Shown piece by piece: positions 811 through 55,757 of a stretch of 64,000 nt of DNA. The stretch comes from Rhizaria sp. SCN 62-66 (taxonomy: Eukaryota), in the NCBI GenBank assembly GCA_001724265.1, contig MEDY01000255.1, forward strand, positions 1 to 64,000, written 5' to 3'. Position 1 is the first letter of the stretch. Every line of letters starts with the position of its first letter. Under the pieces are notes generated by a model that did not search any database, was not told the origin of the DNA, and saw only the letters and a program-made list of their open reading frames with translations. The position numbers and the translations under genes are program-made.

Positions 811-3261
811 ATGCAATACGTCGACGACGCACACCGCCATGCCCACGACGCTCGCTTCCATGCCGCCATCAGGCATGTGACAGCTCTGACGTCAGATCTC
901 GATGCTTTGTCTGAATTGTAGGAAGAGATTACTTTAAGTGAACACCGCGACGTTTCCTTGCTTCGCGAGAGCGGAGTTGTCCCACTGCTGCTGCAGTCGC
1001 TCGTGCTGGGTGGCGAAGCGACAACGGACGCACGCCTTGATCCTATCTTAAAAATGTTTCAGCAAGTCGCGCTCTGGCAAGGTGGCTGCAATTTACTTGC
1101 CGAGTATGGCGCCTTTGAACGAGTCTTTACTGTACTTCCTATTCTTGCTCATGATGAGAGCAAGAGCGTAGCCGCGACAATGTTTGCCTTCGCGGAGACT
1201 TTTATGCGCAAGCAGGAGCCTTCCATTTCTGCGAGGCAAGCTGTGTCAAAAAACTGTCTGGCGTTCTTGCGTGAAGTCGAGCGGTACTGTGTTGACTCAA
1301 CGGATTATTAGTATCTAACATATCACTCCAGCGCTCCTCTTGAAATGATAACGTAGCTCCACTCAGGGTTGCTTCCATTTAGGTCGGTGTCCGACTTTGT
1401 TCCGCTGCTACGCAGGATCATCCGGCATCTTTTGACGCTTTAGTCGGACTTCGAACCAGAATGGATGTTGATGCCCCGTGACTTCTACAAAGCTCTTCAT
1501 GGCGTCTTTATGTGTGGCGTCAGTGGCCAAGACCCAGATGATGCACAGCGTCGCGCGGATATGGCGGACTTCGCAGCCAGTGGCGAGTTTCAGGCATTGT
1601 TTAAGTTTCTGAGTTGGGATTTAATGATCCAATTTCTGAAATTGTTTGATCATGCCACGTTTGTCTGTGCCTTCACTCATGATCGCATCGAGTGCGTTAT
1701 CGACTGGATTAACGCGGCGGATCCTGACGACAATGATCCCCGAAGGCTTTTTAATGACTTGCTGGGGGTAGTTGCGCATGTATCAACCCAGCTTCCAGAG
1801 TTTGCCCGAAGTCTCTCTTCCGTGAGTAACTTTGATGTGATCTTACGCAACCTGAGCAATCGTTGGTGCATTTGGGTGGAAGATACCCCAAACAATTTGA
1901 TGATGATATTCTCCAGCATCTTGAACGCTGTCCCAAATAGGGCGCTGGCGGCGCAGCAACTTCTTGCGAACGGTGCAGTGAAGTTGTGCTGCAACTTCAT
2001 TATGTCTCATTTGTTGCTGGGCTTTAATTGTCAGTGTTTGAACTCAACGGACGCTGCACTAATTCTGCGCATGCTCCACTTATTGATCATCATTGGAAAC
2101 GCGTCGCCTGATCATGCAATGGTTGACAACGACGTTAATTTGCGCGAGAACCCCTTCGTGGTCGAGTTCATTGCGAGTCGCGGGCTGCAGGCACTTGATC
2201 TGTTACACTATGATGATCGTGTACTCGTTGACGGCGGGGGTCCTGTACTCTTTGAACGATAGCAACTGTGCTCACTACTGGCAACGCTGGGCGTGGTTGT
2301 GCCGGACACACCAGCAGCAGTAGAGCAGTGGCGCATCCAGGCTCACAAAGAATTGAATGACTTTGTATACCCAAACGAAGACTGGCAGTGTGCGTTAAAC
2401 AACTATATTTCAAGCCACTACTTCCAAAATAGCGGCTTTCTTCAGAAGTCTCAGTCTTTACGTCGACAATATGGCGGACATGTCCCTTCTGGAGCTGCCT
2501 TAACAGTCTTGCAGACCAGGGCGCGCGAGCTCATCCGTCGTGCGGCGACGAGCGATGTCGCGGCCGAGCATACAGCCTTTGATGAGCAGATGGCCCTGGA
2601 TGTGGTGATGACGATGCGTCTGTACAATGCACATTCCTCGTTGCCGGAAGTGTACACGATGACGATACGGCTCAATGATGAGAGTTTACCTGCCAACTCT
2701 GCCCATTTTCGCACTGCGGCTCGAAATACTTGTCTTGGTAGTTGCCTCCATACATGTTTTATACCACCCCAGCATGGTACAAATCCGACGTTGCCATTCG
2801 TCACATTCTACGGAGAGGATGGCGAGTCCACGTGCGCGACGACACCTCTCGTCCTACCAGACAGTGACATCGTTTACGGCGAGTACTCTCAGCCTGCGCC
2901 GGTCGGCACATCATCTCGTGCAACATTGTACCCCGTTGGTACTGTATTGTATTTTCCCTACACAGTGTATTCGCACTACCAACGCGATCAAGTGAACCCG
3001 CATACTATGCCGTGGTTCATCGTCTTCACACCATGTCCGACGGACTTGCTGCGCGGCGCCGTGCCCGTCGGCCGCGTTATGTCGTGCGTGGCGGGCGATG
3101 AGCCAGCACTGTACGACAGCAGTGATGAGCCTTTTGATGTCACTGTCTTGAAACACCTTGTAACGCGAAGTCACGTCGAGAACTGTTGCAATGGAAATCG
3201 TGTGGCAAAAGTATGTGTTTATTTTAGAAAGTATGTTGCCAAAGATGTCACACAAGTGTAA
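811..3261 (+). CDS. Intronless 816 aa protein, divergent importin-alpha/ARM-repeat-like N-terminal part plus an unrecognised C-terminal domain; needs 5 in-frame TAG codons read as sense
   Basis: ORFs 958..1311, 1465..2262 and 2293..3261 share one frame with an ATG at 811. The only interruptions are TAG at 919, 1309, 1354, 1441 and 2260, and the frame ends at TAA 3259-3261. LRESGVVPLLLQSL and LLIIIGN...ENPFVVEFIASRGLQALDLL resemble importin-alpha ARM repeats (from memory). Confidence 0.7.
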
Positions 3262-18317: not shown

Positions 18318-18414
<97 letters not shown>

Positions 18415-21400: not shown

Positions 21401-21959
21401 GAAACTATGCGATCTCTTATCCCTGAAATTGCGTTTACTACGATGAATATGTGTTATATCTCACAGCAACTCAACGCTTTACTATTTTGTGTTTCGATGA
21501 TTCCAACAGGTCAAGGATCGCCACAACGGCAACATCCTGATCGACAACGAAGGCGCCATCGTCCACATCGACTTCGGCTTTATGCTTTCCAGCTCCCCAG
21601 GCGGGAACATGAACTTCGAGAACGTTCCGTTCAAGCTCACGGAAGAGTACGTCCGCGTCCTCGACGGCGAAACCTCCGAGATGTTTGACTTTTTCCGCTC
21701 GCAATTTGTCATGGGCTTCCTCGAGGCGCGCAAGCACGCGCACAAGTTCGTGCTGCTGACGCAGATCATGCTCACGGCCAACATGCACGCCTTCGTACGC
21801 GGACAGGCCGCCGTCGACGCCCTGCGCGCGCGCTTTATGCTGGACCTCAGCGACGACGCATGTATGGAGCACGCCGCGTCGCTCGTCGAGCGAAGCTGCA
21901 ACCACTGGCGCAGCGCGCGCTACGACGAGTATCAGCGCGTCACCAACGGCATCCTCTAA
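17078..21959 (+). CDS. PI4KB: Phosphatidylinositol 4-kinase beta, 5 exons: 17078-17182, 17427-17702, 17921-20885, 21067-21381, 21510-21959; one frameshift near 18323-18412
   Basis: PIK helical motif LEFMIPQLCQLL, LNSRDKAPFL, and kinase motifs FKGGDDCRQE, VKDRHNGNIL, HIDFGFML. Ends NGIL-TAA. Summed exon length is 4111 nt, not a multiple of 3. Confidence 0.92.
18323..18412 (+). repeat. Perfect (CAG)30 microsatellite inside PI4KB exon 3
   Basis: Counted directly from the sequence. Confidence 0.95.
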
Positions 21960-22952: not shown

Positions 22953-25900
22953 TTAAGCCCTGCAGCGCTTGACGATGGGACGCAGCTTGCTCGAGAGCTC
23001 CATATCCTTTGCAGTGAGCAAGTAGCGCTTGACAAACTCCTCTTCCATCATGAACTCCGTCTCCTTGGTGCGAATCTTGAGAGCGTCCTCCGCCATGAAG
23101 ACCGCAACTTCGAGGCGCGCTTGCACTGGCTCGGCGTCGAGCACAGCGTACACACGCGCCCGGCGGCGGTTGTAGCGCAGCTCTGCCATGAACGCCTCGG
23201 TGATATAGTAGTTCTTCTCGCGGTTCTCGGTGCAGGTGCGCACGTGCGTATGCGCATCGCCCTTGATGTAGTACTTCATGCACACACCACAGAAGTCGTG
23301 CTTGCACGTGTCGCAGCGCACGGCAGCGCAGTTGACCCAGTCGAACACGATGACGCCGCAGTCGGGGTTCGGGCATTTGTCTTGAAGAGCATCGCGCAGC
23401 GCCGCTATTAAGTCGGCGTGGCGGTCCTCAACGGCAGCACCATCGCCCGCGTTGCCGCCAACGGCTTGAGTTTGCTTGCACGTCCTGCAGGCAAACATCG
23501 TGGCACCACCAGCTGTGAAGAAAAAAGAGTTGGTATTAAACAATGAGAGAGATGTGTGTAAAGATCGAGCGAGCATAATACACGTACACTATGAGCAATG
23601 AACAATACATCCGAATATAAAAATCAAACTTATAACAGCATTTCCGGCAGTATCGGTAAAGATACAAAATACGCTTGTTTCAATGATAAAGTTTAATAAC
23701 GTACTCGGTAAAGCCCTGCGCTGAATCTCAGAGCAGTTCGTTGTGGGACACTTGACGTAGGCTTCCTTGTTCTTGGAATCAATAAGGAAGTTGTCGCGCT
23801 CCCACTTGAGCATCGTCTCAAACTCACCGGGCCCGAAGGCGGAAATGGGAATGTCACTAAGCGGCAACTTCTCCTTGCACCCATGCGCGCAGCATTTGCA
23901 GCGGTTCTGCTTCAACTGGTTGACAACAGCAGGAAGGCAGTCGTGGCACGCGACATGGTTGCACACACTGGACGCCATGCCCAGGTTGTGACGGAGCACT
24001 TCGTCGCCGCAGAAGATCAAACACTCGTTGCTGGCAAGCGCGACCTTCTTCTGAGCCGTTTCGAGCATCTGGCGCGTCTCCAATGCCTGCTTCAGGTTTT
24101 CAACCTTTGCACCGGAGCCTGACACCAGATACACGGAGCTGCGTGCAGCGTTGTGTGTTGTGCCCACAAAGATGTAATCAACGCCGCTGCTCTTAAGCAG
24201 CTTCTCAACTTCGCCTGCCTTGATGGAGCTCTTGATCTCGATGCGATCGTCGACAACTGCGTAGCCGGCCAGCTTAGCGGTAAGGTCTTGGATCGCAGTA
24301 AGCAACGCGTTGCAGGCCGTCACGCTGCCGTAAATGTCAACCGAGGTCGTATTGTGATTCACCTCAGCCCACACAGGCAGCTTCGACTTGAACTTGTTCT
24401 GACTGCTACCATGCTTGCTCTTCTCTGCCTCCTTAGCCTTGGCCACTTCCTCCATCTGCTTCTTGCTGCGGTGCAATTTGAACAGCCCACCCAAGTGGTG
24501 CGTGCCGGTCGGGCCCGTAAGGCGGGGGAACACGTGGACAAGCGTGCCGTTGTCGGGCCGCTTGAATATGTCAATGCGGTGAGATTTGAACACAAACTCG
24601 GTGTCAAAGTACTTGCGCGCAGCCTCGATCGCGGAGTCTTCGCCGGCGACAAGAATGCTGTACTTGCCGTCTGTGTGCACCCCAGGCATAATCCGGCACT
24701 CAGCACCCTTGGTGATTTTGCGGAGCTCCTCGATGATCTCGTCGCCCATCGACATGCCCACGTCAACAGGCAGCATGATCTGCAGTAGCGCCCAGATGCG
24801 CTGGCAAAGATTGCGGCCGAACCTGCTCACGTCGCCCGTGTTTCCTCCAGGAACGTTGCCTTCAATGTACGCGTACTGGCGCGACTGGCTGCGGTCAATG
24901 GCGACGGCAACCCGGGTCACTGCGTCCGACGCAAACGCGGTCGGAAGCTCGAACTCGCCCCTCGCCACCCAGCTCATCTCACTGACGCCCTTCTTGTAGA
25001 TCACTTCCATGCCGCGCGCCTCGCCTGCAAGTGGGACCACGGTCTCAGTCGTCTGCTTTAAGGCAACGTTGCCACGAAAAACGGGGTGATTGTTCAGTGT
25101 TGTATGCACCTGAAGAGCAGCTTCCTGGGAGACGCAGATGAGCGTTACTGTCATCCGCTTCTTGTCCTGGTCGCCGCGCTCGAACGTGATGGTGGGCACC
25201 TTGCTCCCACAAGACGGCAGATAGCATTCACGGAAATAATGCTCGTCGTCGTCGCGCTCGTCAGAGTCACTGCGGCAAGCAAATGAGACAGTCAGCGTTG
25301 CTGTTTCACCATGACACAAGATGTCATAAACTTCGAGGCCAGGGCCGCAAAGCAGTGCCACGTTGGCCCCAATGTCGATTTGGCGGACTTCAGTAAGCTT
25401 GCGCAAATGCACATCCTGACGATACCGTTCGAACTCGTAGAATGCCAGGGCGGCCTTATCGTTGGCTTGAGGCGCGCGCACCATGACACCGGAGGCATCA
25501 GTCACAATAGTGCAGCCGTACCTCTTCTCAAAGCGTTCGCGAGCTGTCTGCGTAGGGAACAACGCGTCCGACTCACCAAGGTTAAGCGTGTAAAACTTGC
25601 TCTTGGTGACGGTTTCATCGGCTAAAGTGCGGCACTTTTGGTAAAACTTGGCGCTGCAATCGGCGATCCACTCCAGTTCGATGGGCACCGGCGGCGTCGT
25701 AATGACGCACTGGCCATGAGAGGCGTGCGCAGACACGTAGATTGCCCACTCGCTGAGATCGCGAATTGCCGCGGCGGACTGGCAACGCCAGTTAACCAGA
25801 ATCTTGAGACTGCTTGCGCTAGTGTAATATGCGTGCTGGTTGACGGTCAAGCCGACGTCGTTGTTGAGCTTGCGGATTGCGTGCGTAAAGTAGCCCGCTG

Positions 25901-38183: not shown

Positions 38184-38660
38184 AGGAGAGCGCAAACACG
38201 TTTTACTATTTAATGCAGGTTTATATCCGCGTAGATAATCTAAGGTAAGGTCAAAGTGGCCACATTATGAAATAAACAGTTTGATTTAGACAATAAGTAT
38301 GCTATTTTTGCTATTGATACTTATCTAAGAACTGATTGTGCGCAAATGAGAGCTGTGTTACACAGTCCAAGTGATCGTGGTTGTGATGTGCCGTGCGGCG
38401 GGTCGGATAGAAGTTCGAAATTGGCATGGCTTTTCTCTGTCGACCCTGAATTCAGATGACCGTCAACAGAAGTATAACATAACTGCCCACGTTGATCGTG
38501 CATCAAGACATTAAGAATTCTTTTTATATCTCTTATGTTCTCTCTCTTGTTTATTATCTCAACTCTTTCTCGCTTACTCGCACACTCTAGAACTCCGGAC
38601 CAAACTTTCTCCGACGTCAGCACGTGCAGGCACCTGCCTCTCACTCGTTCTTCCTGCACG

Positions 38661-41600
38661 ATGGCCAGCGTGTCCGAGCTCGCGTCTCGTCTTGAATGGG
38701 CGACGGACGACGAGCTCACCTGCACTCTCCTCGAGTTGAGCACCGAAATCAACATGATGAATGAGAGCGACCTGACAACTCTGCACATCCCCACCTTCTG
38801 CGGCTCACTCGCCACCGCCATGCAGTCCTGGCAGGCGCCGGACGCAATCGTGCTCGCCGCGCGCGTCCTCACCGGCCTGCTTGACACCGCACCCGAAACG
38901 ATGGCCTTCGTGCACTCGCAGACGCCGCTCATCAACGTGCTGCTTGAGCACCTCAACTCGGTAGCGTACCCCGACGTCGTCGAGCTCGCAATCCCGCTGC
39001 TCGCCCGCATTGCCGCGCGCTCACCGCCCGTGCTTAACGCGCTGGACATTACCGCCGTCTACGGGTCCATCGACTTCTTCTCCGTCGTCACCCAGAGGGA
39101 CTTGTTGGGGCTGATCGTCGCGGCTGTGCACACGCACTCGCCGGTCCAGACGGTGACTCGCGCGCTACAGCTGCTGCCCATGCTCGCGCAGAAGGTGCCG
39201 CAGCGGCGCTGGCTGCCCACGCTTACCGTTAGTAGTATTGACAATAACTACAGCAACAACGAAGTGAGGAACAACGAGCGTAGCAATGCGACAGATGTTA
39301 GGGTTAGCTCAAGCGTCAGTTCAACTGCGAGTGTGCTCGATACAAAGAATGTGACTGAGAGTGGGTTACGGCTTGTCCTCGCGTCCGCACTGGCCGCGCA
39401 CAGTCGCCACAAGAAGCGCACTCGTCGTGTGAACACACACACTGCGACCGATCACGTCGACGGCGACAGCGACGACGAGTACGATGACGAGTATGATGAG
39501 GGCAGCAGCAGTGACGGCGACAACGACGCCACTGCTGCTCACGCCGCCAGTGCGAGCTCCGACTCCGCGGCGACGGAGGCCAACACGGCGGCTGTCGTCG
39601 TGTCTGCGCTGCTCAAGGCGGTTCTCAGCACCAAGGTCGTCAAAACCGCGTTTGCGACCGGTAATTACGCCACGCCGAGCTACACCCCGTCTCTGAGCTC
39701 GCTGCAGCGGCTGACTGGTGCTGCTTGTAACGCCATAAAGTGGTCCGATAGCGCTGCGAATGATGATGAGCGAAATGGTACTTTCATGTCGTGTAAGGGT
39801 GGCGACGTGACCGTGGGCGCAGCGACGATGGCGGCCGAGCTGGGTACTATGCACGGACTCACGGTCGCTGCGGCCGCTCGGCGCATGCTTGAGACCGTGG
39901 GCACGGTCAACGGGACAGTGCACACTGCTGATAAGCCCACGGCGAATACTGACAGTGTAGTGGCAGTGGCTGAGGCTCAGGGTAATACCTGTGCTGCAAT
40001 GTCTGACTCGGACGACAAAGCTGTTGATGCAAGTATCAAGTCAGACAACAGTCCTGTCGACGCACCCTCATCAGCGTCGAATGCTGACGATGTAAGCGCT
40101 CTGTGTAAGCACGTTTCATGGGGGAAGCTTGTGCCCACAGTCACTTTGCCCTTGTTCACACCTGTCACGAGTCAGATTCAGACGAGGCCGAGCAATGGCT
40201 CAACCACTGACACCGCCAGCGCCAGCGCCAACGCGATTTGTGCGGGTGTAGGTGTGAGTGGATGTGACGGTGACTGCGAGTTCAAGGAGGAAGAAGAGAG
40301 TCTCATCGACGGTTGCTGGGTGACGATGCGCCTCGCCGATGCAAGTACCCACGGAAATTGTGCGGGTGATGCATCTGTTCCTGGAGTTGCGCTCCGCCTG
40401 TTGCAGCAATACTCTCAGTCCCAGTCCCAGTCGCAGTCGCATGCACAGACACATTCACAGTTGCAGGCACAGTCAGTGGAGCTGCAGCCCGTGCCGGCCG
40501 TCGCGAGCGCGAGCGCAACCACTGACTGGGAGCAGCAATCTGACCTACAGCAGCAACAACAGCACGAGCAAGAGTAGCCAACTCACACGCGAGAGCAGAA
40601 GCGGCAGTTCCTGTCGCTGGCAGGCGACGCGCTGGTCACTTCTTTGACCCAGGCTTTCCCGAAGATACAGGGCGGCTTGGCTCTGGGGGACGGCGGTGGC
40701 TTAACTGCTGCTTCGTGCGAGATTGTCGCCGCACTTACATCCCCGTCATTGCTGCTCACGTTAAGCACTCTGTTTGAAACCGCACTGGCTCCACCTCTTC
40801 TCGCTTACAGCGACGATGCTCGCGCTGGCGCCAGCGACACGAACGCGATCGCGTTTGATATGTGCGACTCTACTGCCGGTGCGTCAAGTGCTGAGAATGA
40901 CGAGGCCGTACTTAACGCTTTGCTTCGTAGGCCGCGTACTTACACGCGCGGCACTTACACTCGCAACGGTACTTATACGAGCGACGTACTGAGTGCGCTC
41001 GCGCAACAGCACTTCGACAACAAATGTCATTGCTGCAGCCGTCGTTCTGATCACAACAATGACGATGTGACTTCTGCGTCAAAGGATGATGCTTCAAAGT
41101 GTCCATTGGCCCAGATTATCTTTCAGCTCGTTCGCTCACTGCCCCATCATCGCGCGTACAATGCCCGCGCGCTTGGCAGCAGCGCCAGTGCGAACCCCCC
41201 CGTGAGTCTCGCTCCCAACGTCGCCGCCTCTGTGGCGACCGCCGCCGCCGAGGCGTTGATGCTGGTGCTAACGACGACTGCGACGCCCGTCGTCACACTC
41301 CCTACGGGAGATCAGCCGCGGCCTCAACAACAACAACAGCAACAGCAGCAGCAACAGCAGTGCTCGCAGGCGTTGGGAGACGGGTTCGGCACTGTGGTGA
41401 CGGCTGTGACGCTTCCGCCGCCGCCGCTGCCGCTGCGGCCAGCGCCCGTCGCCGTCGCCGTCCCAGTCTCAGCCTCCGCGTCCACGACCAGTGTGAGCGT
41501 TACGAGCAATGACACGGCACGGGTCAAGTTGCGTGGCAGCGACAGTGGCAGCGGTCGCGACACTGACTCTGACAGCAATGGCAGTGGCAGTGAAGAGGCT

Positions 41601-44600
41601 GTTCTCTAGCACCTGTTGGCTCAGGCAACTGAGTACTACGGTCTTGCTCTGTTGTCCCCTCTCCAAGAAGAAGAAGAAGAAGAAGAAGAAGAGGAGGAGG
41701 GCGCTGGCGATGAGCGCGCCGACAAAAGCAACACAAGCGCTGAGGATGGTGCGACTAAGAGTGCTGCTGCCGCGACCGACATCAGTGCCGACAATGACAA
41801 CAAAGATGCTGCTGCAGATGGTAATGACGGTGCATGGGAGTAGCCGTCCCGCAACACGCGCAGTCGCACCCGCACTCGCGCGCTCAGTGTGCCTGCCACT
41901 GCCACTGCCACTGCCACTGCCACTGCCACTGCCACTGCCACTGCCACTGCTACCGTGACTGCGAACTCTAGTTCAGGCGGCAGCAAACAGAGCAACGGCG
42001 CAAGTAGCAACCGCGGGCGTGGCCGGGGCCGTGGCCGTGCCCGTGGCCGTGCCCGTGGCTGCGGGCGCGGTCGAGGCGGCAGTAACACTGCTAACGACGA
42101 TGACGCCAACGCTGACGCCCACACCGAGACCAAGGCAATCACTGGCGATATGGTCGATTCGCCCCCCACATCGCCCCCGCCCCCGCCCCCTCCTAGCGCG
42201 CGCGACATCCTTGTTGGCGCGCTGCAGAAACTGGAGAGGACGCCGCTTTTCACTGCCAACGAACGCGCCGCACTGGCGCGGCAGCATCCTCCGCTTTTTA
42301 GCCCCTCTGCGACGACGAAGGCGAGTGGATACACGTGCCAGCTCACGGTCGCACTTACACTGGCTAAGGGTGCTGTCACGTCGCTCACTTTCACAAACAG
42401 CTCCTCGAATACGAACAGTACTGCGAGCGGTGACAGTACCAGGTTCATTAAGCTCGAGTCCGTGCCTCTTGCTGTGCTGCAACAAGTTGTTGACGCTGCC
42501 CACGGTCACTTCGCAGCACTTATGTCTCGCGTAAGCGCCACCTCATCAATTGACAGCGGCAATGCTTTCCGCGTTGACTATAGTCTCAGCGGCTCGTGCA
42601 AGTACGATGTCGAGCTGCTTTTGCCTGCTAAGGTGTTTTTGCATGCGCACAAAGACACGTCACTCATCACGACTGAGACAATGACGACACCTGCAGCTGC
42701 ACTTTCAGCGGGCAACAGCGACGATTTTGAGACTCGCCCGAGCACATCTGTGTCTGTTGCTGCTGCTGTTGCTGCATCGGTGACTGCAGTCGAGACAGCA
42801 AGCGCGAATGAGTCTCAGTCATCATCGTCGTCGTCGTCGTCGTCGTCAGCGTCGGCATCGTCAGCTGCGGATACGTGTACTGCTAAGCGTGGCACGTACA
42901 CTTCACGGTCCGTCGTGCTGACGCGGCCACACGCACTCTTCGCGGTTCTCTCCGCACTTACTCACACAGTACTCACTTCTCCGCTAAGTACCCCGCTGCC
43001 AAGTCTAAGCACCCATCTGCCAGCGTCCATCAACTCAGTTGCGGCAGCGACCGCGGTTACCCACACTGCGGCGGCCGCGACCGTGGCCTCTGCGATGCTC
43101 ATCCCGCCTCTTGTCCCCAGTCCGTGGACTATGCTCACTCACTCACGTCTAAGTATCCCCTTAGACTCCGGTCACGCGAGCAAGCGTAGCGCGCAGCAGT
43201 CCGGGCTCGACAGCGCAGCGCGCGCGATTTTCTCGGTCCTGCGCCGCGCCCCCGGCCAGTCTCTGCGCGCTCCCAGCCACTCCGTGGTGACGCACATCCT
43301 GACGGTGCTGCCGCCGCTGCCGACGACGAGCGGCGCGGGCGCCAGCATCACTGGGCTCAGCGCCCTGAGCGCCAGCCTCAGCGGCGGCGTCAGCACCGCG
43401 GCCGTGGACAAGCTCTCGGCGGGGTCGCTGCTGCGCGCGCTCCTGCTGCCGCCGCTGGCGCTGCCGCTGACGTTCGCCGAGAAGGGGGCGAGCGTCGGCG
43501 TGGGGAGCCACCCGGCGGCGCTGCAGTCGCGCTGGCAGTGTAAGTACCTCGCGTCTAAGGGCCAGGGCGGCGCCTCACCCGGGACTACGCAGAAGACGCC
43601 GAGGTACCTGCAGTCTAAGGGTGTGGTGCGCCCCTGGGTACTTACATCTGCGCCTAGTCGTCTGCTCGCGGTCGCCGCGACTGTGCCCGCTGCTGCTGCA
43701 GCAGTGGCAGCGACAGCGTCTGCTGTGGCAGCTGTGGTGACTGTGGTTCTTGCCGCTGCAAATGACGCGGCGAAGGAGGCCGCCGAGGCAAGTGCGGCCG
43801 ACGCTACCCCTTCTAAGGCGGCTGATGCTGACCACGATGCTGATGGACATGCTGTTGATGCTGCTGAGGTTGCAAGCGCGAGCAATGACAAGGTTACTGC
43901 TTGCGTTGGTGTTGCGGCAGCTGTTGCTGCTGTAACAACTGCGGTCGCTTCCGTCACCGCTGCGACTGCGCTGTTGCGCTCTTTTCTCAACGAAAACGCG
44001 CCTACTAAGTATTGCATTGCATCATTTAAGGGTTTGACTTTGAGCGAGGGTGCGTTGTTTCTGCACTCTACTACTCCTTACATCGAAGGCGTTCTCACAT
44101 CTGTTGCCGACATGATTGCCGATATCACAAGCACGGAAGCTTATCTCAGTACAATCAGTGCTGATCTAAGTACTCTTGGCTTAGGACGCGCGCTTCAGAG
44201 TGTCAAGCAACAACTTTTGGTCTTGATCTCGATCACAACATCGATCGCTGCCCCACTAATTGCAACATACTTACCCAGTCAGACTGTCGCTGCTGCGGAC
44301 TTAAGCACTTCTTTGACTGACTGCGACACACGTGAGAATAGTGACATCCACGGAGCTGTGATATCACATATGCGTCGGTTTGGCGTTGCTTCAGCAATGC
44401 GGCGCTTGCACGCCTTTGTTCTGAGCGCTGCTGGTGATGACAACGGAAGTGACTCGATTTCTACCACTGTTGAGAGTGAACTATCTCGGAGTACAAAGGC
44501 AGCTGTGACTGCTGCTGCGAGTACACTCAGTATCTCCCTTGCGAGCAACAGCGTCGATTCGAGTGCAAGTGCCTGTGCCCAAATGGACGACACATGTGGC

Positions 44601-47600
44601 GAGAGCAGCATCGTTGCACGCCTTACTGCTGCTGCGCGGACACTAAGCCAAGCCGCATCAACTGCAAGTCAAGCATTGCCAGCCTCAACTGCATCACCTC
44701 TCTTAATGACTGACTGCGAGCAACAACAGCCTGTTCCGAGTGGCAATGAGCAGTCGAAGCTCAGTCAGTCCAGTGCGAGCTGGTGGCTCGGGACAATGCC
44801 GTCGGGCACTGACCCGCTCACGTCTTCTTCCAGTCTTGGTGCGCGCGATCGCAGTGCGAAGGATTCGACCAGTGCAACTCCTAACACGAACTGTGGAGTC
44901 GTGAGTGACTCTGAGCTCGTTGCGCTCAGCGAGATCCTCGACATTTTCTCTCTCACTGAGCCGAAGTCCCATGTGGATTCAAACTGTGCGGACATTCCCG
45001 GTAGCGAGGTGCCATTGCTTCCTTTAACTGCGTTTGCGCCGACCCTACACGAAGTGACGGAGTCTGGCGTGCTTGCAGCCCTCAGCTCATACCTCAATGT
45101 AAGTACCCCCTTGGACACGGAGGACCACGCACCCGTGCCTTTGTCGCTCGCAGCAGCGCGGGCCCGTGCGCTGTTAGCCGTTGCATGCGGCTTGCCTTTA
45201 GTGCCGAGCCCTTACATCACCACTGGTACTACTTGCGCTGATAACAAGAAGACTGGCAGCGAAGCTGAGACGGAGACCGGTGCAGCTTGGCTTTCCTTCG
45301 CTTCTCAAATGAAGGCCGCCACAGATCCCCTCTTCACCACTCAAAGTCAGGCCGCGCCATTTGCTTGCTCTGCGCAATTAGACGCAAGCAGTGTGCGTGC
45401 GCAGCGTTTACACGGTCTTAGCACGCTGTTCAAGTCTGCGCGCGCGGCCGCTGACTCGGCCGCGCTTCGTCTGGCGCCATTGCTGTCGCCCACGTACACG
45501 CTCGCACTCACATTGGGCTCAACGACGGCATCTCCTCTGACGACCATCACGTCGGTGGCAAACGCCCTCAACGACAGCAGTAGCGGCTCAAGCGCAAGCT
45601 GTAGCTCTGGTGCTGGTGCTGGGAATAGCATCGTCACCGTGAGTACTGGCGCTGGTGCGTTTGCGCTCTCACAGACACGCGCACAGTCCCTTACATGGGC
45701 AAAGCGGTACGTACGCCACATCCGCATGACTCTCCATCACACGAGTACAGGCTCTGACACGACTAGCCATGCAAGCTCCGCTGTCTCAGAGCCGTGCGGC
45801 TTAGCTTTCTCGACTGGCGGCTTAACATTTGTGCAGCTTGTGAGCGCTTTGTGGGACAAGACTCAAGTGACAGTCGCGCCATCACACCGTCTTCTTGCAA
45901 ACTACTTTAGCGCGAACGCTAACAACAACGCGAACAGCGCAAGTAGCGCCAGCCGCTATAGCTCAGGCTACAGCCTTTACTCGAGGCAATCGTACGGCTC
46001 TGGCGGCTATAGCGCGCAGTTACAGCCGCAGTGCCAATGGTCGCTCTCTGTCCTCCCCACAGCTGCCATTGGCGACAAGGCTGCTGACGTTCTTCGCAAG
46101 AGTCATACCGAGATCTCCAAAGTCTATCTCTACGATGTCAGTGCTTCCAACAGCAAGGCCACTGTGAGTACCTGCGGTGACCTGAGTGATCCTGCTGCTC
46201 TTGCCCCTTACACTGTCTCATGCCCAGCTTTTCCTTGTCACGCCACACCCTTAGACCTTGCTCTCATTGACAACGTGACTAAGGATGCTCACTGTGAACT
46301 TGATGCTGTCAATGGAAACGAACACTCAGAAGAGGGTAGTGCGATGCTCACGGTCACTGCTGCAGTTGCACGGATGCTAAGCCGCCCCTGGACTGTATAT
46401 TCATTCAAGCCGAATATGACAATGCTCACTATCGATGGCAACGACATCACAAGCACTGTTGGTAGTAGCCCCAGCTCGAGTAGTAACTACTCAGGCTACA
46501 TGAGCTCGTACGGTAGCCCGTACGGCTCTGCATACGGTCACACCCCCGCCCCGTCCGCCCTGTTCACTCTCGTCCCCACTGCCGTCGGCAGCGGCGCTAT
46601 CATCACTCTCAACAGCGGCGCGGGTGCCGGCACCCAGAGTCGTCGCCACTGCTCGATTCACGGCTGCCAGAGTAGCAGCAGTAGTGATAACGCCGCTGCG
46701 AGCGCGAGCGCTGCTGCATCTGAGAAGGCGGCTGCGACTAGCAAGCAGGTCAAGGCGTACTATAGCAATATCACGACGTCTGTTGCCCCGTACGATGTCT
46801 ACGTTGAGGGAGACTGGGCTGCGAGTCGCGCCGCGTCCAGAGACGGATGTTTGGCCGCTCTCGGTTCTTGTAAGGAAGTCACGGCGCAGCACCCCTGTAC
46901 TCTGTGCAGCGCCTCTGGCAGCACCACAAACAGCGCGGAGACGACCCCGGCTACAAGCGCCATTGCTAAGGCCAACGGCGGCAGCAGCGATGGTGAACAT
47001 GCGCGCAGTGTTGTGAAGATCGTCATCTCACAAGAGCAAGAGGAGGACGCGGTGATTCACAATGTGCTGTTGCCGCTGCTCCAGCTCGTGTCGAGGCTCA
47101 GTCGCGTGTTGACGAAGTGGTGGGAGTGGTACTTACCTGACGTCGTCGCGACGGTGGATCTAAGTGCCTCTAGCTCTTGCTCGAGCTCGAGCTCCAGTGC
47201 GAGTGCCGTCACTGCCGCAGCTGGCGGCAAACTCGTGAGCATTGCTCTGTTGCCGACAACCGTCACGCTGACGGCGCCGTCAGCTGTCAGGGGCGGTGGC
47301 GACGAGTTGACGACAAACAACAAGACCAAGGTTCCTGTTCCCGTGCCCGTTACTGCATACTTGCACTACATGCAAGAGACCGCCCCGCTGTCCAGCGTAG
47401 CCAGTGGAGGCATCTCCGCTTCGAGGCCCTGCTTTACGTTTGTTGCAGGCCTTGTTGGCCGCCCACGCCAGCTTCAGCCGCTGCCGTGCCCGTCTCCAGT
47501 CTTTGCGAGTATTGCGCACGCCCACAGCGGCTCAACCTCGAGCTCTAGCTCTGCTACTGCTGCTGGTACTGTCCACACTGTGAACGCAAGCGTTGATGTT

Positions 47601-50600
47601 GATGTCGGTGTTGTGTGCAGTGAAAGCGACTGTGAGCTGCCTCTGTTAGGCGCAATCGCTGCTTTATGGACGCTAGACCCAGTGGCAATCGCGTTCAAGC
47701 ACTTGCCTTCCTGGCTCGGCACCCTCACGCGTCTCAGCTCTTCGACTGCGAGTCAGCGCTCAGACGGCGGTGTAAGTGCCCCCTTGGCCGTCCCCGCGCT
47801 GCTGCCGCTGCTGCCGCTGCACGTGCGCTCCCGCCTCGCGCTGGCTTACCACACGGGCCCCGCTGCGGCGCGCGCCGTGGTTGCGGCAAACTCGGCGCTG
47901 TTCCGCAGTCAAGCCGGGTTCCTGCACCGCTACGTCAGCAGCTCGGTCAACCTGCGGGGTGCCCTGCCGAGGGAAGCGGTGCTGAGCGGTGGCGCGAGCG
48001 CGACGGCGAGGGCAAGCGTGAACGTCATGACCTCGACGGTGCTCAACGTGGATCTCCTCACTGCCTGCGCGTGCGCGAGTCTAAGTACCTTTCTCGCGCC
48101 GCCGCTTACTCAGCTCCATATCTTTCACAGCAGCCATACCTACGCCACCAGCACGAGCTCCATGACCACGGTGAGCTGCGCAACCACGCTTTCGTCCCCA
48201 TCACTCCCGCTGCATTTGCCGCCGGTATCGCTGCTCTTCGCCCCCACGCCGCCGCCGCCGACGCAGCAACAGCAACAGCAGGAGGGCGCCACGGGGAGCG
48301 CCGGGGCCGCGGGCGGCCGCGCACCGCTGGGCAGCGCCAAGGTGACTGTGAGCAGGCCGGCGCCGTTTGCGGACATGACCAAGTGGGCATGGACGCAGGC
48401 ACTTGCAGCTCTAAGGGGCGCGAGCACAAGCGCCACTGTTAGTAGCAATTCTAGCGCAAACGCGTTCACTCGCAAAGATGCTCTCGACATTGCAAGCACT
48501 GCTCTCGCGTACATGCACAACAACAACGCGAGCGCGAACTCCAACATTGGTTTGTCTGCCGGTGATGCTGGCTATGACGGTGTGTTGAGTCCGTGTGAGT
48601 TTGGCAATCTTGTGTCGCTACAGTACACGACAGTTCCTCTTCAAACACATGCTGGGACGAACCCCAATGACTTTCCATGGATTTCTCAGCTTCTGCACGC
48701 AATGGCATCGCCGCAGAATCTCAGCAGCCGTCTAAGTACCTGCCACAGCGAGAATGTAAGCACCCGTCACCCGCTGCTGTGGGCCCCACGGCCGCTGCAG
48801 GTCGTGCTCAAGGGCGTGTTTGCGGGCGAGGCCGGCTTTGGCGAAGGGCCCAACCAAGAGGTGCGCGCGCTCGTCGACTCCACGCTCGCCGCCGCCGGGG
48901 CCGGGGTGGGACTGTGGCGGCAGGACTGGGGCAGCGGGGCCCGCAACGGCAGCTGCCACAGCCAGGGCAACAGCGACTGCGAGAGCGACGACGACGGTGG
49001 CGGCGGTGTCGACCCTTATAGCGGCCGTGGTGATGATGGCGACATCGTCAATGGCGGTGCAGCTGTAGCTATGACTGATGGTGACCGTGGCACGACCGCA
49101 GACAAGGTTGCTGACTCCAACTCTGGCGCGAGCTCGAGCTCTGTGCTTGTGACGGACGCTGCGAGTAAGCAAGAACGCAAAGCGCAGGCTTTGGTTGCAA
49201 AGTCAGAGGTTTTGCTTACGTTTCCTTTACCGAACTCGCTGAGGAGCCCAACTTCAGACGCGTATGCACAAGATGCACGCGCATCCCTGTGTGTGCCTAT
49301 TAGCTCCAGTGCGCTGCTCATCTCTGCCATTGTCGCGATCGACACTGCGTATAGCCCAAACACACCCAGTTCTGGAGGGGCATCAGGCAGCCTCGCTTCT
49401 AGTTCTGGGTACGATAGCGCCTACCGTAATGACAACAACAGTGGCAGCTGCTACAGTAACAGCTATGTTTCAACGGCAAGCCTTAGCAGCAGCCTTAGCA
49501 GTAGCGCTACTAAGCACAGCTACAGTAGCTTACACAAAGACAACATTCGCCACAAACGCGAGAGCCTTCTGTTCCCGTCTAAGCGGGCTTTGCGACTGCA
49601 GAAGCAACAAGCGATGCTGCAAGCACAGCAACAGGCAGCCGCGCGCGCGGATTTGATGAAGGACGGCGATGACGCAAATGAAACTGCCGCAGATAGCAGT
49701 GATATTGATGATGCCAGCGCGGGCTACATCTTTGGTGGGATTGATGATATGTTTGGCTTCCGACCCAAGCGTAAGCTCGAGTCATCATCATCAGCAGCTA
49801 CTGCTGCTGGCGTTGGCGCCAACGATGCCGCTGTGAGCACGACTGATACTGACTCCGACTTCGATCTGGACTTTGATTCGGACTCTGACTCAGACATCCT
49901 CAAGAGCTCTCGTGTTGTCGTTAGCGACGATAACAGTTCGAGCCTCGATGGCGCGAGCAATCCAAGCGCTGATCTCAACCCGCGCCACCGCCGGCGTCGG
50001 CTTGCAGTTGCCGTTTCCAGCACTTACAGTTACCCTCCAGTTCCCGGCCGCAACGCCGGTGACGATGACGACGACGAGGAGGAGGAGACTGAGCAGGAGC
50101 ACCAGCTGCCTGCGGTGATATCGGCGCCAATTACAGCCACAGACCATGTCGCCACCGTGACTGACAAGCAGAGTGACGCGCCGGCCACTGCGGCCTCTGG
50201 CGCGGAGGCTGCGGCTGCTCTTACCGAGGCTGAGGCGAAGGCCAAGGCTGACGCCGAGGCGGAGGCTGAAGCTGAGGCAATCACAAAGGCCGTGATTGCA
50301 TCTGACTGCGCAATATCTGGAGTGACGGACGCGTTGAAGGCATTCTTCCAGTCGGCAGGAACTCCTCAGAGTAGCGCAAACAGTAGTAGCGTGAGCGGCA
50401 GCACGAATGCTACTGCTTGCGCTGGCGCCGGCGCTGATGCCAGCGAGGTCCCTAGCGCGAGCGCTAGTGCGAACAATCTTGATAGTACTGCAAGCTGCGC
50501 AAACTTTAGTGCAAGTGCTAATTTTGCGGACAGTTCTGATGTTAGTGCCCCAGATGTTGGCCCTGGCCTCGCGTTGACGAGCCAGCTAATGCGCATCATG

Positions 50601-53600
50601 ACCACTCTGTTCGCGCACACGGCTGCGTCTGCTTCAAAGGCTAAGCCTCTGACGCTGAACAAGAACGCTTTAACAGCCGCTGCCGCCGCCGCTGTTGCGG
50701 CGACGGCTGCGGCTGAGTCAGGCGCGGCGAACAAGAGTGATGTGGCTTCTATTTTCAACGCGGTCAAAATCTCTCCTGTGTTCACAGTCACTTACTCTAG
50801 CAGCAACGCGAACGCGCGCACCGACACAGCTAACACGCGCTCGGACAGTGCTCGCATGATGACTGTGAGTAGGGTGGCTCATGTGCCTCATGCAACAACA
50901 ACATCGCTTGTGGTCACAAAGAACGCGCTCACCATCACCGCAACATCTGAACATGATCGTCATGGCTCTAGCAGTCAAACCAGTCTCCCCACGATCACGT
51001 TTGTTCCCTACAGGACCCATAAGCTTGCCGCCCGCACTGCACATGACAGCAGCTCTAGTGATGATGGCGGACGCGATAATAACAGCGACACCAGTGATAC
51101 TGATGATGATTGCGGCTCACGCTTGCCGTTGCCTTTACTCTTGCCGCTCACATCCTCACGTGTTCCCCAGAACAACAACAACGACACTGACACGAGTACG
51201 CTGTCAAGCTCAGGTGTCCCTGCATGCGCTGTCATTTGCACGTGCTGCGGTGACGCAACCCCTTTAGTCGAGAATGGAGCGTCCATTCCGATCCGGCTTC
51301 ACTTCAGCGATACCCCGCTAGTCATTCCTGATATTACAGTCACTTCGACGACCCTGGCACGCGCGCGACCTCCAGGCTTATCATTCAGCAACAAAACCAC
51401 AAGTAACACTCTTGACACGAACTCTGGCGCTGTTTCGACACTGACTACGGTCACACCGATTAACACTGCTAGCCGTGTGTTCGCAACGTTCTTCGCGATG
51501 GTGATTGCTCGCGTCGCCAGTGTGCGTGCAGAGACACGGCGGTCACTGAAGATTCTCGCGAACGAAAGTCAATCCGCACGCGATAAGACGAAGGCCGCTG
51601 CAAGGAAGAGCAGGCGCGAAGCTGTTGTTGCATCGGAAGAGACGAGTCACAACGACGACAAGAAGGACGACAAGTCTGAGGCTGGTGAGGCGGTGAACGC
51701 AGACTCTGACTCTGTCGTTGGCACAAAGGCCGCTTCTAAGACGCGGGCTCGGACCCGGACTAGAGTTCGCGCGAGGGCGAACACTCAGATTGCGACCGCA
51801 GCGAACTCGAGGTCGAATGCCGGCGCAACGGCCAAGTCCCGTGCGAAGTCGACGTTGAAGGCTAACGCAGACGCTGCCTTCGAGGCTGATACCGAGTCTG
51901 AGGAGGAGGCTATTGCTGAACAGGACACTGGGGCTTTGAAGGTCAATCTCTTTGCCGACGCAGCGGCGAGCAACACGCCTGATGCCGCTGCTCCTGCGAC
52001 CGACGGGAACAATGATGACAACAGCAGCGATGACAGTGACAGCAACGTTGGAGACGACAGTGACAGCGACAATGACCGTGACAGTGAAACTGGTGAGGAT
52101 TGGTGGGCACAATGCTTCGGCTATCAATTCACTTCCACAGGTCTTGCTGTCGATGTCCAGCTCGCTGCGACCAACCCAATCAAGTCTAGCGACACCACGA
52201 GCGCCACGTTTTGTGAGCAGCCCGCCGCATCCACGCGGTCTAATCCGCGATCTAAGCGGGTTAACTCGCCACCGAAGAGCTCCCAGTCGGCTAAGACTGT
52301 TGCTACGAGCGAAACCGCGGTGTCATCTAAACCCCGCGTCAAGCGCACCAAGCCATCTGATCCTGGCAGCCAAACTCAGAGCAACAAGATCGAGGACTTG
52401 ACTTCGGAGCAACAGCTTGAGAGTCACCGCGCGCGTGTACTGCGTCGTTACGTCAAGATGTTCACTGCTCGTGCCCCCCGGTTGGCGGCAGCAAACACAG
52501 CAACGCAGACCCATGATTGTGTCAAGGAGGCGAACATGACGATTAGCTGTGCTCCCGAGTCAGCGCTTACCGTGGGCAATGTCGCTGAGCGGCTGACTGC
52601 CAAGGCGGCGAAGCTTCACCACTTGCAGTGGGTATCCTGGACTGACGCTGTTGCCGTGGCGATGTACGTCGCTGTGGCAGCGAGCAAGGCAATGGGCGGC
52701 ACAGCGCACCTTCGCTTCGGCCAGAAGCTCCCCTTTGCGGAAATTAGTCTGGCTAACCATGGCGTGCAGGTGCCGGCGAGCGTCACGCTGTATCAACCCG
52801 CGGTCAACAGTAATTCAAGCACGAACGCGAGTGGACTTTCCTATGCTGCCGCCGCCCTTGCATCTGTCTATAACAATAGTCACCCCAGCGGCGGCTCAAG
52901 CTCTGCACCGCGGTTTCCCTCACAAGACCCTCTTGTTTGCCGTTGCATGACGACTGATAAGGACAAGAATAGCTCTCCAAACACTACGAGTGTCGCAGTA
53001 CCTCAACGTGTTCGGACGTTGTTTTATGTTTCTCCGAACTTCAACAGCATGAACACGACGAGCCCAGGCAGTGGTATTGCACCGGTCACGTCAGACTACC
53101 AACAGAGCCAGAAGCAGCAGCGCGAGCTGCTACGGCAACTGCAAAAGTCACATGATGCGGCCCAGCGCCGCGCTGCACGCCTTGAAAGTAAGCCGCTGAG
53201 GCTTGACTTTAGGCCGAGTCTGCAAGCCATCGCTGCTTCTGCACTAACTCCTAACTCCAGCAATACTGACAACAACAATGCACCAGCTGCTACTACTGCT
53301 GCGTCTGGTTTGAATGCGACAGCGAGTGCGACTGCAGGTGCACCTGGCAGTGTTGCAGTTGTCACGGTTGCTTCTTGCGATCAGGTGGAGTTACCTCTGT
53401 ACCCTTCGTGGCGTCTTCCAACTGTACCGAGTGCAACAACATCTAGCACAGACATGTGGGGCGATACCACTATGCAGTCTAAGTACACCCTTGCACAAAT
53501 GCCACTGTGGCTCCGCGACCTGCGCTCTGACTCACGCCCTACACTCGCCAATAGCAACGCCAGCGCTAGTCTCTCGCAGTCAACGCAGGACTCGCAGTCG

Positions 53601-55757
53601 CTCGTTGCGTCCGTGCGGTGGTTTACACTGGGCACTGCGCTGGGTCGTGCGTGGGTTGAAGGGGCGCGGCTTAACTTGCCACTGTCGGAAGCGTTTTTTG
53701 CGGTGTGGCAACAGCACATTCGCAAGTACCACAGCAACGCGAGCACACCCATTACGCACACCAGTGACAATTACAGTGCCACCATTGCGCGTGCACAGTC
53801 ACTGGCGAACGCTGCCCGTGACTTGAGTCGCTTCGGCGCAACTGCGCTTCTCACGCAGACGACAACACCGTATTGCACGTCTTGTAGTGCTAATGCGAGT
53901 GACAATGCCGCGAGTGGCACTGGCGCAGGACCTGAAGTGCTTCGGAGCGTCTTGACTTCGGCACAAGCGGGTCTGCTAGTTCCTGCTAAGTCAGATTCTG
54001 GCTCCGCAACAGCAGCAGCAGATGATGTAGGTGTGACTCTTGGCGGCATGCCCTTGGATGACATTTACTTGCCCTTACTGCTGCCCGACCCTGAACCGAG
54101 CCCACGTGCTTCTAACAGCGCCGCCGCTGAGTTAAGTGAGTCTAGCGCCCGCGTAAGTGGTATTCCCGCCAGCGTGTTGTCCGAGTACAGTATGACTGCT
54201 AGCGAGCTTAGCGCCGCAATCGCGAGTGACAGTGTCGCTAGCGTCAATACCAGCAGTCTCAGCTCTGCAGCCGCAAGTGCAATTTCATCTGCCGGATCTG
54301 CGAACCGAAGCGCCGTGATCCCCGTAGACCAGACCCTAACATCATCGACTCTGCCGCTGTCCCTCGCCCTCACTCACAGCACGCTCTTCCGCGCAGGTCT
54401 GCCCGCCGCGAACATGCTCGCGCCGCTCACGCTCGGCTTTGCGCTCGCCGCGGCGCCGCAGGCGCTGTTGCTGCTGTCGTCCGCGGAGGCGGCCGCCGCG
54501 CTGGGCACGCTGCCTGACGACGACGACGGCGAGTTTGAGGACGGCGACGACGATGATGAGGACGAGGACGAAGACGAGGAGGAAGAGGGCCCACGCAGTC
54601 CTGGCGCAAGCGCCGTCAGCCCGACGAGCACGAAGTTAAGCCGCGCCCGCAGCAGTGCGCACAGTCGCCGCCGCAGCAGCAACGGCGGCACTGTTAGTGG
54701 CAGAGCCCGTCGTCGCAGCAGCCTCGGTGGCAACAGCCTTCCCGGCAGTCTCAACAACACGCCTAAGACAGCGAAAACAAAGTCTTTGGCGACCACCGCA
54801 TCCGCAACGAAGGCGGGCGCTGCGAAGCGTCGCCGCGGCGGCTACGACTTCTCCGTCGCCACTCTGGCCAAGGCCCTTACACTGCGGTCCCCTTACACCC
54901 TCCAGTCGCCGACGATCGTGGCCCTGCTCACGGTCCTCTCGACCTTCTCGGTTAAGCAGCAGCGCCGCTTCCTGCACTGGGCGACGGGCGTGCCGCGCCT
55001 CCCCCCGGGCGGCCTGGCAGCGCTATCGCCGCCGCTCACGGTTGCGCGCGCGGCCGCGACGGTGCGCGAGGTGCAGGAGGCGGAGGAGAAGGCCAGTAAG
55101 GCGTGGCGCGATGAGGCCGAGGCGCGGGCGGCAGCGACGCTGGCCGCGGGGCTGCAGCGGGCGCGGGCGAGCGCCAGCGCCAGCGCCAGGGCTGAGACTG
55201 AGGCTGAGAAGGCTAACGCCGGGGCTAGCAGTGACCACGATGACAACAAAGATGCTAGCCTAAGCGAAAAGTCGAGCGATGTCACAAGCAACGAGTCACT
55301 CCCGCTGCCGATGACTGATAGCGATTCCAACAGCAGTGCCAGCACAAACACTAGTGCTGACAATGAGGGAGAGGAACATGAAGAGCAGCAGACAACAACA
55401 GCAGCCCAAGCGGCGACCACAGAGGCGTCAGCAGAGTCTGTCACTGTCGCTGACAGCAGTGCGAAGACCGAGAATGAGACTCTGGCTGAGATTGCTGCAC
55501 AGGCTCCGGCTGATACGGACACGGGGGCAGCGATGGAGTCTGGCTCCGCGAGTGTGACTCTGACGCCTGTCGCTGTCGTCGTAAGCAGCACCGAGTCAGC
55601 AGCGAAGGACGAGGATGAGCCCACAGTGTACTTGCTGCCGACAGTGATGACGTGCACGCACATGTTGCGTTTGCCTGACTTAAAGACCGTTGCGTTGGTC
55701 AAGGCCAAACTCTTACGTGCAATGGCTGACACTGACGCGGGATTCCAGCTGTCTTAA
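38661..55757 (+). CDS. Giant single-exon HECT E3 ubiquitin ligase of the TRIP12/Ufd4/UPL3 type (~5,698 aa); needs 3 in-frame TAG codons read as sense
   Basis: N-terminal ARM region (PDAIVLAARVLTGLLD, IDFFSVVTQR) and HECT motifs FAGEAGFGEGP, LNLPLSEAFF, FLHWATGVPRLPPGG, LPTVMTCTHMLRLP, GFQLS-TAA. Four ORFs share one frame and are separated only by TAG at 40575, 41607 and 41841. Confidence 0.88.
41893..41950 (+). repeat. (CTGCCA)n hexamer repeat encoding poly(Ala-Thr)
   Basis: About 9.5 tandem copies, seen directly. Confidence 0.9.

Follow-up and report, generated by a model that had tools for sequence, protein, structure and literature searches.

A HECT ubiquitin ligase gene with three in-frame TAG codons points to a eukaryote in which UAG is probably no longer a stop codon

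To our knowledge, nuclear genetic codes are rarely altered at TAG alone, and we know of no nuclear code giving UAG and UAA different meanings that was recognized before 2017. As far as the excerpts of the published descriptions used here extend, UAG encodes Gln in the nuclear code of Iotanema spirale (Fornicata), with UAA and UGA as stops (PMC5304391, PMC9161772); 204 UAGs were counted in 126 conserved genes, 22 out of 28 were found at hyperconserved Gln positions, the terminators were UAA in 104 cases and UGA in 15 (PMC5304391), and the GTS motif of eRF1 is changed to GGS (PMC9161772). According to similar excerpts, UAG encodes Leu in the rhizarian exLh (Sainouroidea), in which 384 UAGs in 71 genes lie at conserved Leu positions (PMC5304391, Pánek et al.), and in phyllopharyngean ciliates it encodes Leu (three uncultivated species) or Gln, with UAA fixed as the preferred stop (PMC11687900). 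The excerpted account of Euthynema mutabile, a relative of Iotanema, describes a standard code with UAG in 7 out of 170 terminators (PMC9161772). Here, we analyzed a stretch of 64,000 nucleotides (contig MEDY01000255.1, positions 1 to 64,000 of the forward strand; hereafter, the window), in which a 17-kb reading frame encoding a TRIP12/Ufd4-like HECT ubiquitin ligase and a second reading frame at 811-3261 are interrupted by TAG alone. From the sequence evidence presented below, we consider it likely that UAG no longer serves as a stop in this organism.

Under the standard code, the ligase frame on the + strand is split into pieces at 38496..40577 (693 codons), 40578..41609 (343 codons), a piece of 77 codons, and 41844..55757 (4,637 codons), all of which are in one phase. 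When TAA and TGA alone were taken as stops, the pieces formed a single open frame of 5,754 codons at 38496-55757, in which TAG appears three times and TAA and TGA not once before the closing TAA at 55755-55757. We placed in this frame the single-exon coding sequence of the ligase (38661..55757, + strand), which begins with the ATG at 38661, comprises 5,698 codons plus TAA, and received an in-frame codon-usage score of +2,340 bits. The three in-frame TAGs are located at 40575..40577 (codon 639, after a Gln/Glu-rich run), 41607..41609 (codon 983) and 41841..41843 (codon 1061), all on the + strand and within a low-complexity linker that separates the armadillo repeats of the N-terminus from the distant HECT domain. 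The first-pass annotation had described three TAGs interrupting one otherwise intact 17-kb frame, and their positions, their common phase and the openness of the frame over 5,754 codons were confirmed; the three peptides that it quoted across the joins (QHEQE*PTHTREQKRQF, EEAVL*HLLAQATEYY and DGAWE*PSRNTRS, the asterisk standing for TAG) match the translation of the DNA.

We then considered the stretches between the TAGs against the background frequency of TAA plus TGA, which, for the off-frames of the genes in the window, amounts to 0.034 per codon. At this frequency, the chance of remaining free of TAA and TGA is 8e-6 for the stretch of 343 codons and 0.07 for that of 77 codons, and the other two frames of the same stretches contain 11-12 and 0-7 such stops, respectively. 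The codon-usage score was positive in frame 0 throughout both stretches.

Spliceosomal introns exist in the window, and we measured three of them: two in a PI4-kinase gene (20886-21066, 181 nucleotides; 21383-21510, 128 nucleotides) and one in a DEAH-helicase/RBR gene on the - strand (23513..23704, 192 nucleotides, GTACGT...CAG, 33% GC), which holds a TAG at 23589-23591 and served as the intron control. The three introns have a GC content of 33-38%, start with GTACGT or GTGCGT, and end with a pyrimidine run followed by CAG; a fourth intron, in the PI4-kinase gene (17703-17920, GTACGA...TAG), was read from the sequence. In comparison with the 33-38% of the measured introns, every 100-nucleotide segment of the ligase open reading frame (ORF) has a GC content of at least 44%, and the 61 nucleotides around each of its TAGs have one of 52-65% (0.57, 0.52 and 0.65 in the order of the TAGs). 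The nearest donor-like motifs (GT[AG][ACT]GT) lie 321 nucleotides upstream of the first TAG and 405 nucleotides upstream of the second. The GC floor of 44% and the remoteness of the donor motifs bear out the earlier statement that neither an AT-rich intron nor a donor is present at the joins, and introns at the ligase TAGs were ruled out by the GC content, the absence of nearby donor motifs and the conservation of the frame.

Two further TAGs in the window were rejected as codons: that at 17918 is the 3' splice site of the fourth intron and was dropped from all counts, and that at 23589-23591 of the helicase gene is intronic. The helicase intron (23513-23704, - strand) is exactly 192 nucleotides, or 64 codons, long and is in phase, with one TAG, no TAA and no TGA in frame; in a TAG-reading organism, the reading frame would survive its retention. 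By a rough estimate, one intron would show this combination by chance with a probability of ~1%.

We counted eight TAGs, no TAA and no TGA as in-frame stops over seven coding stretches (~11,400 codons) of the window, and TAG accounted for 156 out of 924 stops (17%) in the off-frames of the same stretches. The probability that eight out of eight in-frame stops would be TAG under random decay is ~7e-7. Both genes that hold the eight TAGs have homology on both sides of them, and the reading frame is kept at all eight sites. The second of these genes, a member of a multi-copy family (811..3261, + strand, 816 codons, ending with TAA), contains five in-frame TAGs (919, 1309, 1354, 1441 and 2260) and neither TAA nor TGA in frame. 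A HMMER search with its product retrieved 101 homologues (E <= 0.001), which span residues 11-808 and hence run across the TAGs, and the full-length homologues with 33-39% identity align without gaps across four of the five. All of the ten homologue clusters that we looked up were derived from metagenomes, and three of the 101 homologues (P0126, P0127 and P0141) are standard-code fragments of this gene that start or end at its TAGs.

Metagenome contigs were scanned with the conserved C-terminal domain of this family, yielding 36 loci (L001-L036), all in one dataset. One of them (L001), a contig of a different metagenome assembly, matches positions 1366-3692 of the window with 100% identity (2,327 nucleotides, including the TAGs at 1441 and 2260), an agreement that possibly reflects the same underlying reads. 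The remaining 35 loci (L002-L036) are paralogues with 31-62% protein identity; in 7 out of the 36 family loci (L014, L016, L024, L026, L033, L034 and L036), the ORF at the match is short or broken. The paralogous loci contain 24 further in-frame TAGs in 17 ORFs. This count leaves out the duplicate of the window (L001), three 3' splice sites (L007:382, L018:8267 and L023:609), four TAGs that are close to ORF starts and could not be aligned (L017:7794, L017:7812, L014:127 and L033:7701), one TAG after which similarity is lost (L025:710), and three TAGs of L029, which is a likely pseudogene. The TAG common to L007, L018 and L023 was rejected as a codon because it is an intron acceptor, and it was dropped from all counts. 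In L035, a TAG at residue 101 interrupts a ubiquitin domain (Pfam E-value 8e-26, residues 76-147) that is followed in frame by a Peptidase_S74 domain, and the paralogue L020 has CAG at the position of this TAG.

The family is large, fast-evolving and multi-copy, with 36 loci in one dataset and 101 representatives in the database, and no other source supplied as many in-frame TAGs. Its conserved C-terminal domain is characterized by LLRGAVPVGRVMSC and YPVGTVLMYP; Atlas suggests a cyclophilin-like fold, which is unconfirmed. Some members have an N-terminal B-box-like zinc finger, as read by eye, and some have a C-terminal ubiquitin plus a Peptidase_S74 domain. A profile scan of genome contigs and viral contigs with the family alignment gave no matches, and a profile search against solved structures retrieved nothing. 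Among the other genes in the loci, L017 encodes a NUDIX-domain protein (2571-5906) whose single in-frame TAG is located upstream of the likely start Met; the sequence from this start (MLLHRLAASSLAVRPSLRRPRALL...) resembles an organelle-targeting presequence.

We tallied the stop codons at gene ends in the window and in the loci. The nine window genes end with TAA (7) or TGA (2), the eight non-family genes in the loci with TAA (6) or TGA (2), and the 34 out of 36 family ORFs that close within their contigs with TAA (13) or TGA (21). As the 34 closed family ORFs include L001, which corresponds to the window gene at 811-3261, ~50 distinct genes were tallied. TAG thus terminates 0 of ~50 genes, with one ambiguous copy (L025), in a tally that is weakened as support by being partly circular, because the ORFs were delimited by TAA and TGA. 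A subset of 28 genes is free of this circularity: their coding sequences contain no TAG, and the first stop met, whichever of the three is counted, is TAA or TGA. The base following TAG in 32 contexts was C in 12, T in 8, G in 7 and A in 5, with C mildly above its background of 21-24%; these contexts shared no 3' motif, and no classical programmed-readthrough signal was found in them.

To what residue TAG might correspond was analyzed in two ways. Partner codons could be aligned to 12 TAG sites in two groups of close paralogues with 78-90% DNA identity. Gln codons (CAG or CAA) were the commonest partners, occurring at 4 of the 12 sites: L018:8504 (CAG, CAG), L018:9188 (CAG, CTG, CTG), L020:479 (CAA, CCG, CAG, CAA) and L035:301 (CAG); this count is tempered by the fact that CAG to TAG is the commonest single-step route to TAG whatever its meaning. 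The partners at the remaining sites were GCA, TCG, GCA and GCA (L003:137), AAG, TCG, TCG and TCG (L007:3046), TTT, CAT, CTT and TAT (L004:1236), GAT and GAT (L018:8372), GAA (L011:1027), AAG (L029:388), CGC and CGC (L029:724), and GCG and GCG (L029:1024). The Trp codon TGG was found opposite TAG at 0 of the 12 sites. In a family alignment of 126 sequences, 26 columns hold TAG, and these columns are enriched in K (2.1x), E (1.8x) and D, N, Q and S (1.3-1.5x), and depleted to 0.37-0.74x in L, F, Y, C, W, V and I (L 0.48x, W 0.7x). Judging from these columns and partner codons, the encoded residue is probably polar, with Gln as a tentative leading candidate, followed by Glu and Lys. Two other sources of information on the residue were tried and rejected: all five TAG columns among the 101 homologues of the gene at 811-3261 are variable, and the ligase relatives were unreadable at the TAGs, the middle of the ligase matching nothing.

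The identity of the ligase was examined at both of its ends. The N-terminal region (38682..39200, + strand) resembles the armadillo-repeat start of TRIP12: the first ~180 residues matched Pfam TPR_TRIP12_N with an E-value of 1.7e-4 and 22.1 bits, under the cut-off of 33.7 bits, and a phmmer search retrieved solved TRIP12 chains (E-value 2e-4), the region matched being the N-terminal armadillo part of human TRIP12. A single-sequence AlphaFold (AF2) model of residues 1-280 was poor on the whole, with a mean predicted local distance difference test value of 55.6, and reached 64-83 over the first 120 residues. Foldseek matched this model exclusively to armadillo-repeat proteins, none of them at E <= 0.001, and the best superposition of this low-confidence model was with TRIP12 chain 9gkn_A (TM-score 0.52, root-mean-square deviation 2.9 Å, 172 columns, E-value 6.6e-3). 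These weak but concordant results suggest an N-terminal armadillo solenoid of the TRIP12 type. At the other end, a HECT match in the last ~300 residues covers profile positions 193-306 only (Pfam E-values 6e-21 and 5.6e-22). It consists of a segment at 54846..55055 (+ strand, profile positions 193-261, E-value 5.6e-22), aligned to TRIP12 and Ufd4, and a C-terminal segment at 55632..55754 (+ strand, LLPTVMTC...FQLS), aligned to the C-terminal 41 residues of TRIP12. The best solved matches were TRIP12 (E-value 4.5e-9) and yeast Ufd4 (E-value 2.2e-8), and the alignment takes in the terminal LLPTVMTC...FQLS; the end of the frame reads LPTVMTCTHML...FQLS. By these alignments, the C-terminus is a TRIP12/Ufd4-type HECT C-lobe with its catalytic Cys at codon 55653-55655, and the MTC motif that the first-pass annotation had called intact is present in LPTVMTC. 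The suggestion that armadillo and HECT domains are joined in one chain held for both assignments, with the qualification that the armadillo match is weak and that the HECT profile is detected in its C-terminal part only.

The ~4,000 residues between the two ends are of Ser/Ala/Thr-rich low complexity, and Pfam and homology searches detected no family in them. The HECT N-lobe (profile positions 1-192) was not detected by Pfam or phmmer in 41844-54845, and may be diverged or broken up by insertions. The HECT C-lobe is interrupted by an insert of ~190 Glu/Ala/Ser-rich residues (55056-55631), which separates profile position 261 from the segment with the catalytic Cys. In TRIP12, Ufd4 and UPL3 (PDB 9gkm, 9gkn, 9ken, 8j1p), a single chain likewise carries armadillo repeats towards its N-terminus and a HECT domain at its C-terminus, with a C-terminal LPxVMTC...LS motif. 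In contrast to these proteins, the ligase described here is ~3.5 times longer owing to a Ser/Ala/Thr-rich low-complexity filling, its HECT N-lobe and a WWE domain are undetectable, and ~190 residues are inserted in its C-lobe.

These observations could be explained if UAG has lost its termination role and is translated, with UAA and UGA remaining as stops, in a eukaryote with introns and cilium genes. If UAG is translated, the 17-kb frame would therefore be one gene, encoding a TRIP12/Ufd4-type HECT ligase of 5,698 residues, and we consider translation of TAG very probable across the whole genome. A tRNA with the anticodon CUA would read UAG, as an analogy with Iotanema spirale and the rhizarian exLh suggests, and eRF1 would have lost its grip on this codon. 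The first-pass annotation had regarded translation of the ligase TAGs as probable, and this view gains support from a second gene with five TAGs, the absence of TAG gene ends, and the TAGs inside conserved domains of paralogues. We tentatively suggest, as a possibility that falls short of an even chance, that an as yet undescribed, non-ciliate eukaryotic lineage has been caught early in UAG reassignment, with UAG purged from all gene ends and returning only in genes that evolve fast or are of low complexity, as young codons specific to one copy and located at unconstrained positions, where it is perhaps decoded inefficiently or as more than one residue.

A number of observations weigh against a translated UAG. 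Not one TAG was counted in the 13,077 codons of the remaining genes, most of them more conserved (4,908 codons from the window, 8,169 from the loci), where the rate of the ligase gene would predict ~7, and no TAG codon is common to close paralogues with 80-90% DNA identity. The likelihood over the 26 TAG columns was best for E and K by merely +5 to +8 bits, compared with a control in which the true residues ranked first in at least 97.5% of 200 resamples; all 20 residues were rejected as residues whose typical sites the TAG columns represent (P <= 0.002), in a test whose control is inflated by the shared descent of close paralogues. In TAG columns, the commonest residue had a mean share of 0.30, below the average of 0.46 (a value as low was reached in 0 out of 20,000 resamples), and 1 out of 26 TAG sites lies in a column where that share is at least 60%, compared with 28% of all residues. 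At the fifth TAG of the gene at 811-3261 (residue 182), most homologue rows have a one-column gap, and in L025 the similarity to the family vanishes right after the TAG at 710. A search for a suppressor tRNA with the anticodon CUA yielded no tRNA genes at all, either in the 64-kb window or in the 36 loci (120 kb), and this sequence does not include eRF1. We infer that L002-L036 come from the organism of the window on the basis of the shared dataset, gene family and TAG pattern only. The TAG codons look young, copy-specific and restricted to tolerant positions. Since TAG occurs only in genes and at sites under weak constraint, its decoding may be inefficient or mixed; the rarity of TAG, its unconstrained sites and the lack of a single fitting residue are equally compatible with a clean reassignment and with a young or leaky state.

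UAG could still be a stop codon, only a leaky one that near-cognate tRNAs read through, so that TAGs are tolerated under weak constraint in an ambiguous code. Gln, Tyr or Lys is inserted where near-cognate tRNAs read UAG, and a C directly after the stop is a leaky context. The excess of C after TAG (12 out of 32) would be consistent with such leakiness, as would the scarcity of TAG, its absence from the 13,077 codons of other genes, its preference for unconstrained columns, and the fact that no single residue fits. However, a leaky stop should still end some genes, and 0 of ~50 end in UAG, the 28 non-circular ones included; moreover, three successive leaky stops in an essential-looking ligase, or five in the gene at 811, would leave very little full-length protein. 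We therefore regard leakiness as unlikely. Correction of the TAGs in RNA is less probable again, whether by A-to-I editing (UAG to UGG, Trp), U-to-C editing (UAG to CAG) or unconventional splicing. The only codon seen in frame is one that editing of its middle A or first U would turn into a sense codon, CAG lies opposite TAG in paralogues at 4 out of 12 sites, and A-to-I editing of premature UAG to UGG takes place in the sexual stage of filamentous ascomycetes. However, Trp or TGG is found opposite TAG at 0 out of 12 sites and W is at 0.7x in TAG columns, U-to-C editing would rescue TAA and TGA equally and none of these is in frame, and splicing out is contradicted by the GC content, which stays high, and by the frame, which is kept at all eight window sites. 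In addition, the organism is not an ascomycete, because it has a cilium gene (TMEM107, E-value 3e-19).

Decay of the ligase into a pseudogene, or a chance sharing of one frame by separate armadillo and HECT genes, would agree with standard-code calls that split such genes (P0126, P0127 and P0141), with the middle 4,000 residues of the ligase in which no family is detectable, and with the 7 out of 36 family loci that are short or broken at the match. Decay, however, would bring TAA, TGA and frameshifts, and none occurs in 5,754 codons, in line with the argument of the first-pass annotation that ~5,700 codons free of them make a pseudogene unlikely; the in-frame stops were TAG in eight out of eight cases, both ends of the ligase match one family, TRIP12, and the codon-usage signal is positive in frame between the TAGs. 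On these grounds, we give little credence to either form of this explanation. Errors of sequencing or assembly, such as systematic C-to-T miscalls at modified CAG, would accord with CAG as the commonest partner codon and with a possible indel in the (CAG)n tract of the PI4-kinase gene, but the partner codons also include TCG, TAT, AAG, GAT, GCA and CGC, and the second assembly (L001) is identical over 2,327 nucleotides including two TAGs, though perhaps from the same reads; we consider such errors the least credible of these explanations. A translated UAG thus remains the reading that we prefer.

Among the other features of the window, the PI4-kinase gene shows a frame shift inside a long (CAG)n tract (18323-18411), with a poly-Gln frame upstream and the frame of the long ORF downstream, for which an assembly indel within the repeat is one explanation and some unusual feature the other. 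Between 3300 and 17000, the GC content is lower over 14 kb, with few long ORFs and with small or multi-exon genes only. This stretch includes two 80-nucleotide copies resembling C/D-box small nucleolar RNAs on the - strand (7275-7354 and 7590-7669), which are 96% identical and 315 nucleotides apart, and one of which reaches the Rfam threshold for SNORD24 (42.6 bits compared with 41). The cilium gene TMEM107 (5078-5488, - strand), a TFIIS-type zinc-ribbon polymerase subunit with an intron (11177-12031, + strand) and a Lys/Ala/Glu-rich ORF (14397-15092) were also found in this stretch. The best named relatives of the DEAH-helicase are 26-31% identical, a homology search with a WD40 protein retrieved only itself, and Atlas gave only a weak lead to Chlorophyta. 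A CHCH/mitochondrial signal in the ORF at 33221-33781 (E-values 0.04-0.09) was too weak and was not used.

In practical terms, standard-code gene calling breaks the genes of this organism at TAG, as seen for the gene at 811-3261, which is recorded as three fragments, and its proteome would thereby be mis-annotated; the ligase of 5,698 residues would appear as several pieces. The case would add to the two lineages outside ciliates for which the literature excerpts compared here describe nuclear codes that split UAG and UAA, and would independently inform the question of how eRF1 and tRNAs tell the two codons apart. With TAG rare, off conserved sites and absent from gene ends, it may show an early phase of stop-codon reassignment.

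Finally, we compared this organism with the described systems, within the extent of the excerpted accounts. No report fitting it was found in the literature, in a search made without its name, so that publication is not excluded, and Amoeboaphelidium was rejected as a parallel for a change of UAG only, since it is described as UAR = Gln. The exLh code and the phyllopharyngean ciliates share with our case a stop-to-sense change of UAG alone, found through in-frame UAGs in intact genes. However, UAG is abundant in exLh at conserved Leu positions, whereas Leu is at 0.48x in the TAG columns here, and in contrast to the phyllopharyngean ciliates we observed a multi-gene stretch of ~55% GC with introns and with TGA as a frequent stop. 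With Iotanema spirale, the organism shares a change that affects UAG alone, which never serves as a terminator, the retention of UAA and UGA, and Gln as the leading candidate. However, the TAGs here avoid conserved genes and columns, with 0 in 13,077 other codons and no clear residue, and TAA and TGA are about equally used as ends. In Euthynema mutabile, as here, UAG is being abandoned as a terminator, a step thought to precede reassignment, whereas in-frame UAGs are described as lacking there and are present here, where 0 of ~50 terminators are UAG. The organism analyzed here, with TAA and TGA about equal, ~55% GC, introns, and TAG outside conserved genes, thus matches none of the compared descriptions, and a lineage in early reassignment would be a natural intermediate between the state of Euthynema and that of Iotanema.

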